DNA of 64,000 nt, from sequence record CP063550.1, one strand, 5' to 3'. The stretch comes from a plasmid. This document shows, piece after piece, positions 27,001 to 30,000 of the stretch (within the stretch, counting starts at the first letter, position 1; the number at the start of each line of letters is the position of its first letter). The position numbers are program-made.

Positions 27001-30000
27001 ATATAATATAGGATAGTGAAAAGGATCCTATCCTTTTCGCTATCCTACCTCTATCCTTTTACTATCCTTTGCTATCCTTGTACTATCCTATATATTGGTA
27101 TTTTGGGGTCATTTATTTTTTTCAGAAACGTGATAGGCACAGCCTATCCAACCACTTTTTTTAAAAGTGGGGTCACGTTTCCTTATGCTCTTTAAAATTC
27201 GGGGGGGAGTGCTGCACGTGTAATCGATAACCAAATTTAACAGACGAAAAATTGTTGGAATATAAAAATATGACACCCGAAAGAAAACGATCGTTGGAAA
27301 AATTAATGCAACTAGTGAACGAAGACGGCGGAATTTCAGACGCAGCTTTTGACGCATGGAGCGAATTTCATGGAGAATATAATTAAGTGGGTTTAAATGG
27401 CTCTAAAATCGCTTCTAAGAGTTTTTTAGCTTGGACCAATGAAATACACCAAAAACTAAATAAAACGTCTTAAATCGAAAAATACGAGCTCTCAGAGCGA
27501 CTTTATTTGTAAATGTTGCATATAAGAAATAATTACGGATTTTAGACTTTTGTAGGATATTTTTGAAATAAATATTTATTTCTGTTATAATTTGATTGCA
27601 AATAAGTGAACACGAAACACACGAAATCCCCAGAGAGGTCGGATTCTCTGGGGCTTTTTTTGTGGGCTGAGTCGCCTTAATTAAGTTTTACTTCTTGTTT
27701 CGGTTATTCAACCAGTAACTGAACAAAGCGCTTAAAAGCCCAACAAGAAGGGAGCAAATAAAGTTAGTGAACACGAAACACACCTCCTTCCAGTCGCAAG
27801 ACTGTCGGATAGGCGACAATCAATTATACAATAAAAAAGCAAAAATAAGCCTAAGTTTTTTATTGCCTTGGGGTTGTTAGGGCTTGCCCTGACCGCCTGT
27901 AAGGCGCTTTAGAACGAAGGACATAGTTTTTATCGAATCTTGTCTTAGAACGGCTTAGACGAGCTCTCAGGACGCCACAAAGGAGTCCCTAATGAATTAT
28001 TTTTGGCGAAGGAGCCTAAAGGCGACTGCTGCAAGTAAAATGTGAGAGCGTAGCGATCACTCCTTCTTACAGCGACCATAGGGAGCTAGATTGGCAGTTT
28101 AATATCATGCGCGAACCTGTTTATTTTAAAAAGTGGGTGATTTTTTGGCGGGAAATTTTGCTCGCGCGCGCGCGTTTATTTTATTTATTTTTTAAAGATT
28201 TTTTAGAACCCTTTTTAGGGGGCAGTTGAGCCTTACTCTCCCAACGGATACAGAAGGGTACTAACAACTTTTTATCTGAGTACTAACAACTTTTTATCTG
28301 AGTACTAACAACTTTTTATCTGAGTACTAATATCCTTTTGTATAATAACAACCAACCTATTTACGAGTTGGTTGTTAAAGGTTATTATTTATTTGTAAGG
28401 GGGGAAGAAAGGAATGGATGAAAAAACGGAATTAACAGTCAAATATCAAAATGAATTGAATTTAGTACCGCTGAAAAATTTCAATGCTAAGCAGATGGAT
28501 TTATTTTTTGCATTATGCGCTCGTATGAAAGATCGTGGTTTGAAAAAAGTTAGATTTTCTTTCGAGGAATTAAAAGAGTTAAGTGATTATAAGATGACTG
28601 CTACAAAAGCCTTTGTCGGTGATTTAGAAAAGCTCTATAAAGATATGCTTAATCTTACTTACCGTACTGAAGATGAGGATTCTATTCGCTACTTTGTTTT
28701 GTTTACTGGTTTTGAAATCAATAAAACAAAAAAGTTTGTTGAAGTCAGTGTTAATCCGGACCTAGAATATATTATTAATGGTTTAACAGCTGAATTTAGT
28801 AGATTTGAATTATCTGCTTTCACGTCGTTGCGTTCTACGTATGCAAAAACTCTATTCCGACTGCTTATGCAGTACCGTTCTACTGGTTATTATGTAGTTC
28901 GTATTGAAGAGTTTAGGAGGGTTCTGTTGCAAAGTTTTAAATAAAGAATAAAATCCCTTACGGTATCTATGATTTAAGCTGGGATTCCCAATAATACCTT
29001 GATTTCAGTACAGACCGAAAACCCGAAGAGAGTGCCTTCTTTTCGGGTTTTCTTATATAATCCTCGAATGGCTTCCATGCCTTTAATCGTGGTAGAGGCA
29101 GTGCGTAAACTTCGATAGAATTTATTGCGTCTCTTTACTGGACGATGGTCTTGTTCAATCAAATTATTCAGGTATTTAATGGTACGATGTTCTGTCCCTT
29201 GATAAAAGCCGTATTCTTTTAGTTTCTTAAAGGCACTTGTAATAGAGGGGGCTTTATCTGTGACTACAACCTTCGGTTCATCAAACTGCTTCACTAACCG
29301 CTTAAGAAAAGCATAGGCTGCTTGTGTGTCCCGTTTTTTACGTAACCAAATATCCAAGGTTAAACCATCTGCATCGATGGCTCGATACAAATAATGCCAT
29401 TTTCCTTTAATTTTGATGTACGTTTCATCCATTTTCCATGAATAAAAGGATTTTTTATTTTTCTTTTTCCAAATTTGATAGAGTAGTTTGCCATATTCTT
29501 GCACCCAACGATAAATCGTCGTATGAGAAACGTTAATGCCACGATCATATAAGATTTCTTGAACTTCACGATAGCTAAGGTTATAACGAAGATAGTAGCC
29601 CACGGCTACAATAATCACATCCTGCTGAAATTGCTTTCCTTTAAAATGATTCATCGTCATTCCTCCTGCTATCTTTTTCTATTATTCTACCTTATTTGAT
29701 AGTAGATTTAAAACTTTGCAACAGAACCGTTGCCATCCACTCATAAAAAGCAATAAATAATGGACGCAGTTCTTGTTGCCGACAGCTTAATCGCTTCTCA
29801 GGAGAAAAGTCTTTCCATTTCTTTTCTAGGACAAACCATTTATCCAATTGTTTGACTGCTTGAGCTGCGGGAATATCCGTGTTTTTCTTTCCTTTTGGAA
29901 TTGCTTCGAAAAATTTCCGCCGAACATGCGCGAAACAATAGACAAGTCGTACACTTTCCACGGCATTATACCCGCTATAGCCGTCACAGTGTAAATACCC

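Follow-up and report, generated by a model that had tools for sequence, protein, structure and literature searches.

Toxins of the Fst family, to which the toxin of the pAD1 par locus belongs, share a hydrophobic helix with the motif P/D/S/T-x-x-x-G(C), a conserved Trp, and a charged C-terminus, and the motif glycine was reported to be essential for the toxicity of pAD1 Fst (PMC7472228). In pAD1, the interaction between the toxin mRNA (RNA I) and the antitoxin RNA (RNA II) begins at the terminator loops, and both interaction sites are needed (PMC7472228, citing Greenfield and Weaver 2000). The direct repeats (DRs) through which the two RNAs of such loci pair are poorly conserved in the family and confer specificity (PMC7472228). 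The SprA1-type antisense RNAs overlap the 3' end, yet act at the 5' region (T1TAdb, PMC8594479). For Lpt, found on plasmids of Lactobacillus rhamnosus and L. paracasei, an upstream helix and a Shine-Dalgarno (SD) stem-loop have been predicted, and the antitoxin promoter was measured to be stronger than the toxin promoter (PMC5608710). Here we describe a locus of this kind in a 64,000-nt stretch of an Enterococcus faecium plasmid (record CP063550.1), which is called the window below and whose positions serve as coordinates. The locus is very likely a par/Fst-type type I toxin-antitoxin (TA) cassette, lying on the remnant of a small Rep_3 plasmid within a larger E. faecium plasmid. The features of the cassette are as follows.

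27563-27591, plus strand: promoter of RNA II, called by a consensus scan, with the -35 box TTGAAA (27563-27568), a 17-nt spacer, and the extended -10 box TGtTATAAT (27583-27591)
27598-27661, plus strand: predicted RNA II, 64 nt (G27598 to T27661), made of a 5' tail (27598-27622), the terminator hairpin, and U7
27598-27605, plus strand: DRb copy in RNA II, GCAAATAA, read directly; pairs with codons 5-7 in RNA I
27605-27622, plus strand: DRa copy in RNA II, AGTGAACACGAAACACAC, an exact 18-nt repeat
27628-27661, both strands: bidirectional intrinsic terminator, called on both strands by the scan and common to RNA II (plus) and RNA I (minus)
27671-27677, minus strand: AGGCGAC in RNA I, forming the 3' arm of its upstream helix, just past the toxin stop codon
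27688-27774, minus strand: toxin coding sequence (CDS), 28 aa, MFTNFICSLLVGLLSALFSYWLNNRNKK, with a GTG start (27774-27772); coordinates equal to those of the RefSeq CDS WP_125669474.1
27754-27761, minus strand: DRb target in RNA I, UUAUUUGC, codons 5-7
27766-27783, minus strand: DRa target in RNA I, GUGUGUUUCGUGUUCACU
27783-27789, minus strand: SD sequence of the toxin, AAGGAGG, 8 nt from the GTG and kept in the relatives
27790-27817, minus strand: 5' leader of RNA I, including GUCGCCU (27817-27811), which is the 5' arm of the upstream helix, and a hairpin, CAGUC-UUGC-GACUG (27804-27791)
27823-27828, minus strand: -10 box of the RNA I promoter, TATAAT, read directly

A preliminary description of this DNA had proposed that the minus strand encodes an unannotated 28-aa peptide with a GTG start, a ribosome-binding site (RBS), and a likeness to Fst and PepA1. 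The open reading frame (ORF) and its RBS were found at the positions listed, and the family assignment was borne out by the NCBIfam model of the Fst family, NF033608, which the peptide matched with 33.6 bits (cutoff 26, E = 2.5e-8, residues 1-27). The nearest solved structure is that of PepA1 of Staphylococcus aureus, with which the toxin aligns over 27 of its 28 residues (E = 0.003) and has the tail FSYWL..RN.K in common. The family signature appears in the toxin as S8-L-L-V-G12 and W21, followed by the basic tail LNNRNKK. The peptide cannot be called unannotated, since RefSeq records with identical DNA already annotate exactly the 27688-27774 CDS as an Fst family toxin.

The toxins of the relatives described below mostly have P-L-L-V-G at the motif, and their Trp is invariant. 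In 19 of the 21 toxin variants, the ORF has exactly 28 codons and begins with ATG, GTG, or TTG at one fixed position, which supports the GTG start of the window toxin. The other two variants are broken, by a frameshift in L013 (CP130995.1) and by a stop at codon 3 in L023 (OKVV01000353.1), and look like decaying copies; L023 also has the most degenerate repeat match. Glu replaces the Gly of P/S-x-x-x-G (residue 12 of the toxin) in many relatives, giving for example PLLVE, ALLVE, or PLLIE; this is the case for L003, L004, L005, L007, L008, L009, L028, L063, and the loci with identical peptides, and the toxins so altered may be attenuated. A 43-aa ORF with a TTG start (27688-27819) was considered as the product and rejected, since its TTG falls at the predicted 5' end of the transcript and has no SD sequence. 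The RefSeq CDS and the start position of the 28-aa form, which is fixed in all relatives, also speak against the longer ORF.

On the plus strand, the promoter TTGAAA-17-TATAAT given in the preliminary description was recovered; it agrees with the consensus at 11 of 12 positions and has a TG upstream of the -10 hexamer (TATAAT, 27586-27591). We infer the 5' end of RNA II at G27598, 7 nt after the -10 box. Thirteen divergent representatives spanning all sequence classes were compared. The extended -10 box (TGnTAnnnT) stands six nt before the 5' GCA in every one of them, and a TTGnnn -35 box at 17-nt spacing is found in 11, though the promoter sequences differ. The intrinsic terminator and the RNA of roughly 64 nt, both of which had been proposed, were likewise found: the terminator stem occupies 27628-27653, its loop is GTCGGA, and a C and seven T follow (plus-strand T-tract, 27655-27661). 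In the predicted fold of RNA II, the 5' 25 nt are essentially unpaired. Across divergent relatives the terminator stays in place. The stem carries compensatory changes among the relatives (e.g. CG:7 with GC:4, and UA:9 with CG:4), and the loop is almost invariant. In one relative, L061 (JACRYO010002207.1), the loop is inverted, with ATCCGACT in place of GTCGGATT and the stem kept, as would result if the palindromic hairpin had flipped.

The predicted RNA I is roughly 200 nt long, with its 5' end near 27817 and its 3' end near 27618. Its -10 box is conserved and lies 6-7 nt before GUCGCC in 13 loci, and a lone -10 box fits a toxin promoter that would be the weaker of the two, as in Lactobacillus Lpt. 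The 7-bp helix GUCGCCU/AGGCGAC, which would join the 5' end of RNA I to the sequence past the stop codon, is present both in the minimum-energy fold of the window RNA and in the consensus fold of the 13 loci. This consensus fold consists of the 7-bp 5'-end helix, the leader hairpin, an 8-bp helix CUUCUUGU/ACAAGAAG, and the terminator. Since the first three never vary, their support is conservation and not covariation.

The two RNAs are linked by the direct repeats DRa and DRb. A 17-nt stretch common to RNA II and the start region of the toxin had been noticed before; it is present, but it is 18 nt long, and the second repeat, DRb, had been missed. The DRa target begins at the last G of the SD sequence, runs through the spacer and the GTG, and takes in 7 nt more (codons 2-3 plus a single base of codon 4). 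The complementarity that had been claimed for RBS and start codon holds for the start codon and the spacer, but not for the whole RBS, of which only the last G of the GGAGG core is covered. Elsewhere in the 64 kb, AGTGAACACGAAACACAC had no match at up to 2 mismatches, and none was obtained by chance in 100 shuffles. When the RNA II tail was placed on RNA I with RNAduplex, it formed an 18-bp helix and a 7-8-bp helix with a 5-nt bulge in RNA I. The energy of this duplex was -37.0 kcal/mol, compared with -15.3 +/- 2.7 kcal/mol in 1000 dinucleotide shuffles (z = -8.2); the duplex prediction suggested in the preliminary description therefore gave complementarity beyond chance.

To follow this pairing beyond the window, the relatives of the locus were collected. 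With a distant BLAST search, 481 plasmid records that carry the locus were recovered, almost all of them from Enterococcus. Since the RNA I leader is near-invariant, a 27-nt leader pattern could be used as well, and it retrieved 7 genome and 56 metagenome stretches. Together these made 46 distinct sequences with 26 distinct pairs of RNA II and RNA I segments, and the two-helix duplex recurs in 25 of the 26 pairs, with energies of -28 to -37 kcal/mol. The cassette was also seen in proteobacterial assemblies, within stretches identical to E. faecium plasmid DNA on short, low-coverage contigs, L019 (Dechloromonas), L020 (Brevundimonas; a 3.3-kb contig with a window-type locus), and L021 (Vibrio), most likely through contamination by a small E. 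faecium plasmid.

For the covariation count, the RNA II tails were joined to the RNA I start regions, and 18 distinct loci were aligned. The intermolecular cells were paired in 93.9% of cases, compared with 76% in shuffled and 29-47% in slid controls. Fifteen of the 25 pairs had changed on both sides; the shuffles gave a mean of 11.1 and the slid controls 4-8, and 0 of 500 shuffles reached 15. Compensatory changes occur in 12 of the 18 pairs of the DRa helix (helix 2), and the DRb copies also co-vary (helix 1). Homogenisation of the repeats at the DNA level would also yield co-variation. However, 15 of the 17 non-Watson-Crick cells in DRa are G-U and 2 are true mismatches, which we count as about 12 independent events for G-U and 2 for mismatches. 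A skew of this kind is to be expected only where RNA pairing is under selection; it points to selection on the pairing of the two RNAs.

The pairing is also specific. In cross-pairing, the mean duplex energy was -31.9 kcal/mol for cognate and -15.5 kcal/mol for non-cognate partners, and at least eight classes could be distinguished that pair only weakly with one another. The exception among the 26 pairs is the hybrid locus L003 (395-700, equal to NZ_LR135310.1 28562-28867), in which the RNA II promoter and 5' tail of the window class are fused, at the conserved terminator, to the toxin mRNA of class C. Its tail duplex reaches only -13 kcal/mol. The hybrid is 100% identical in at least four plasmids (NZ_LR135310.1, NZ_CP046075, NZ_OR262468, and NZ_OR251469).

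From these observations we infer two transcripts, a toxic peptide, and a stabilising effect on the plasmid. The weak minus-strand promoter, with a -10 box only, would drive an RNA I of about 200 nt, from which a 28-residue membrane peptide of the Fst/PepA1 family would be translated, and the strong convergent plus-strand promoter would drive the 64-nt RNA II. Since one bidirectional terminator would serve both RNAs, their 3' ends would be complementary, and this overlap may provide a second contact between RNA II and RNA I. The unstructured 5' tail of RNA II would pair with RNA I at the start site and at codons 5-7, and ribosome loading would thereby be blocked. Such antisense occlusion, in which the RNA II tail would cover the toxin start site, is the best-supported mechanism. 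If the pAD1 paradigm applies, RNA II would be less stable than RNA I, which would be shielded by its 5'-3' helix. A plasmid-free cell would, given this difference in stability, exhaust its RNA II, translate the toxin, and be killed or arrested. Post-segregational killing through differential RNA stability is thus put forward by analogy with pAD1.

The cassette lies between mobilisation and replication genes, with the following neighbours.

24657-26249, minus strand: MobL relaxase gene, upstream of the cassette
28258-28330: presumed iterons (Rep_3), downstream of the cassette and ahead of the rep ORF, 3 1/3 perfect 22-bp direct repeats, GTACTAACAACTTTTTATCTGA
28414-28944: Rep3_N ORF, beyond the iterons, of which the WH1 domain alone remains

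The preliminary description had placed the locus between the origin of transfer (oriT) and the Rep_3 iterons. The iterons stand on one side, and the MobL gene makes a mobilisation side plausible, but the position of oriT was not found. An imperfect 11/21-bp tandem repeat (CTATCCTTTTA...) at 27028-27090 lies in the interval from the mobilisation ORFs to the cassette; it could belong to oriT or form some other binding site. The iteron copy number is higher in the 3-kb relative L002 (NZ_CP033212.1) than in the window. The rep of L002 has one A more than the window copy at ~1500-1530, and this may explain why no rep CDS is listed in that record.

The rep gene was aligned with that of the 3-kb plasmid; it is identical up to ~28935 and then diverges into GGTTCTGTTGCAAAGTTT, which we take to be an IS1216/IS26-type terminal repeat. 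A DDE transposase gene follows (region ~28935-29660), and insertion sequence (IS) elements flank the neighbouring Rep_3 gene. The Rep_3 initiator gene beside the cassette is truncated, and the replicon is a remnant. The break of rep into the terminal repeat therefore indicates that a mosaic plasmid took up a piece of a small Rep_3 plasmid with the cassette on it. Over the 401 nt surrounding the locus, many E. faecium plasmids are 100% identical to the window, from cryptic plasmids of 3 kb, autonomous ones among them, up to plasmids of 250 kb, and over the wider region there are matches to large multi-resistance plasmids of E. faecium. The cassette is present at an identity of at least 99% in about 100 sequenced E. 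faecium plasmids, and its relatives are on about 480 plasmids, large multi-resistance plasmids included. Scanned with the 27-nt leader pattern, allowing up to 3 mismatches, the window showed no second copy.

These surroundings raise the possibility that the module is a genuine Fst-type one which came in by IS1216 within a small-plasmid fragment and is now an inert or decaying passenger with no role in maintenance, or one whose toxin is attenuated. The IS-flanked Rep_3 gene cut by an IS1216-type repeat would suit this explanation, as would the frameshifted and nonsense toxins of L013 and L023, the G-to-E change in P-x-x-x-G of some relatives, by which the glycine reported to be essential in pAD1 Fst is lost, and the survival of the mismatched hybrid in at least four plasmids. 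However, the window copy is identical over its 401 nt to those of many independent plasmids, including the autonomous 3-kb ones; its ORF, both promoters, terminator, and both repeats are intact, with the repeats perfectly matched; and its toxin retains the glycine of S-x-x-x-G. Moreover, a post-segregational killing module serves any replicon that carries it. We therefore consider this explanation improbable.

It could also be asked whether control acts mainly through the 3' overlap, by terminator pairing, interference between the convergent transcripts, or RNase III cleavage, with the 5' repeats being secondary. The RNAs are by construction fully complementary across the shared terminator, the loop GTCGGA hardly varies, the pAD1 interaction starts at the terminator loops, and the hybrid, which keeps the 3' overlap but not the tail match, persists. 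Nevertheless, it is the 5' repeats that show the strong covariation and the G-U bias, a pattern that is hard to explain without selected pairing; the 3' overlap is common to all classes and so cannot be the source of specificity; and pAD1, as cited above, requires both sites. Control mainly by the 3' overlap is therefore very improbable. That the repeats belong to the DNA level, for example as binding sites of a protein or as products of recombination close to a replication origin, beside an ORF, a promoter, and a terminator that arose by coincidence, is scarcely credible: although DNA repeats are common next to iterons and mobilisation modules, the ORF passes a curated family model and holds its 28-aa length through many substitutions, in 15 of the 17 differing cells the two copies can still pair as G-U, which DNA constraint does not predict, and in every class the repeats coincide exactly with the 5' end of RNA II and with the start site of the toxin.

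Several observations nevertheless count against a functional par/Fst-type cassette that works by antisense occlusion. On the toxin side, the comparison with Pfam PF13955 (Fst_toxin), which the preliminary description had recommended, stayed below threshold (15.6 bits, where the gathering score is 36; E = 0.015), with PF13955 being the sole Pfam family matched. No good -35 box accompanies the RNA I promoter, and the consensus scan made no call there. A possible helix that would sequester the SD sequence, GGAAGG.GG/CU.CCUUCU, appears in the fold of the first 80 nt of RNA I, but its z-score against shuffles is -0.3; it has zero compensatory changes, and slid controls also pair at 65-87%. For full-length RNA I, the CUUCUUGU/ACAAGAAG helix is predicted, which would compete with it. 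The terminator has a good U-tract for RNA II but a poor one on the minus strand (AUUUCGUGUGUUU), and direct reading of the RNA I terminator loop, AUCCGACC, found no YUNR U-turn, a motif that is not universal among par homologs (PMC7472228). Neither RNA was matched in a permissive Rfam search (E up to 10) of window positions 27000-28400. The persistence of the mismatched hybrid indicates that tight tail pairing is not always needed for viability, and the truncation of the adjacent rep gene means that the cassette no longer serves its original replicon. Finally, no report of transcripts, toxicity, or plasmid stability for this clade was found in the literature searched, and the clade is absent from plasmids p2 and p3 and from the first 50 kb of the 56.5-kb p1 of E. 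faecium AUS0004; the differential RNA sequencing (dRNA-seq) of AUS0004 (PMC7724050) thus gives no start sites for it.

Beyond the occlusion of the toxin start by RNA II, the clade might be viewed as a set of interchangeable "addressed" addiction modules, with a near-invariant chassis, an address of about 25 nt, at least eight orthogonal classes, and the hybrid as an anti-addiction element. The chassis would comprise the leader, the toxin C-terminus, and the terminator, and the address would be formed by the tail of RNA II together with the start region of the toxin. Addresses could be swapped by recombination at the conserved terminator, which would produce hybrids such as L003. If this were true, several plasmids in one cell could each enforce their own maintenance, and an L003-type hybrid could neutralise the toxin of a competing plasmid of the window class and permit its displacement. 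We regard this extension as doubtful.

The kind of system is well known, the locus is ordinary, and the toxin is already named in RefSeq. Neither the E. faecium clade nor its RNA II was found described in the literature searched, a search that the 2009 family survey (Weaver et al.) lay outside, and the texts of Fozo 2010 and Weaver 2020 (PMC7472228) make no mention of E. faecium. Annotation covers the toxin only, and that in some records only; the antitoxin RNA is in no RNA library, and no Rfam model detects the RNAs. Searches of the window locus and three relatives with Rfam returned no par-type family. Two sub-threshold echoes were seen, namely the 3' end of the S. aureus RsaJ model on window positions 27529-27657 (plus strand; 27 bits against a gathering score of 100) and the Streptococcus SpF66 model on RNA I of L006 (416-615, minus strand) and L011 (398-594, minus strand) at 23-29 bits; the RsaJ and SpF66 families may themselves hold par-like RNAs. 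In T1TAdb, the expected RNA regions were recovered for only 29% of the Fst/RNAII toxin ORFs (PMC8594479), which explains the absence of the RNA from annotation.

Since it is present on so many plasmids, the cassette is likely to be among the commonest stabilisation modules in E. faecium, a hospital pathogen. The coordinates of RNA II and the covariation-backed pairing model could seed an Rfam family and improve the annotation of type I TA systems. The value of the locus lies mostly in annotation, and the par paradigm is unchanged, save for a clean view of orthogonal pairing classes and an unexplained hybrid, which is a side observation worth following.

For a direct comparison with the known systems, a pAD1-type par locus, L078, was fetched. 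In L078, the SD sequence is followed by 10 nt and a GTG; DRa (GTGTTATTTGT) and DRb (GATTTAATGTCGTT) stand at the start site, and both occur again past the shared terminator. It also has a convergent promoter, and its 5' arm complements the stretch that follows the stop codon. The preliminary description had likened the locus to the RNA I/RNA II arrangement of pAD1 par, and the layout of L078 is indeed the same. Like the window locus, pAD1 par has convergent promoters, a shared bidirectional terminator, a GTG start, and a plasmid location; its RNA II 5' tail pairs with the translation initiation region of RNA I through two repeats, DRa and DRb, with a bulge, and its RNA I has the helix between the 5' end and the sequence past the stop codon. 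In contrast, no nucleotide similarity between the two is detectable. The Rfam models RefA9 (RNA II, 88.1 bits) and RefB11 (RNA I, 53.6 bits) both hit L078, and neither hits the window. The window toxin has 28 aa, W21, and a short basic tail, whereas pAD1 Fst has 33 aa, a V at that position, and an acidic tail. Furthermore, the window terminator loop differs from that of pAD1 par in having no YUNR U-turn, and DRa and DRb abut in the window RNA II, unlike those of pAD1 par.

SprA1/SprA1AS of S. aureus, whose product is PepA1, provides the closest toxin relative with a solved structure, linked to the window toxin by the common tail, and comes from another host genus with other nucleotide sequences. 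SprA1 is chromosomal and lies on a pathogenicity island; Fst-like loci of staphylococcal plasmids are grouped with it among the closest known systems. Lpt, carried for instance by pLBPC-2, belongs to a different genus and sequence clade, and it has been characterised by rapid amplification of cDNA ends (RACE), quantitative PCR after reverse transcription (qRT-PCR), and toxicity in Escherichia coli (PMC5608710), whereas the window clade is described here at the level of sequence. In its organisation, Lpt resembles the window locus: a plasmid-borne Fst-like toxin, of 29 aa in Lpt, is encoded beside rep, RNA I and RNA II are convergent, and the two RNAs of Lpt share a direct-repeat complementarity of about 24 nt (PMC5608710).

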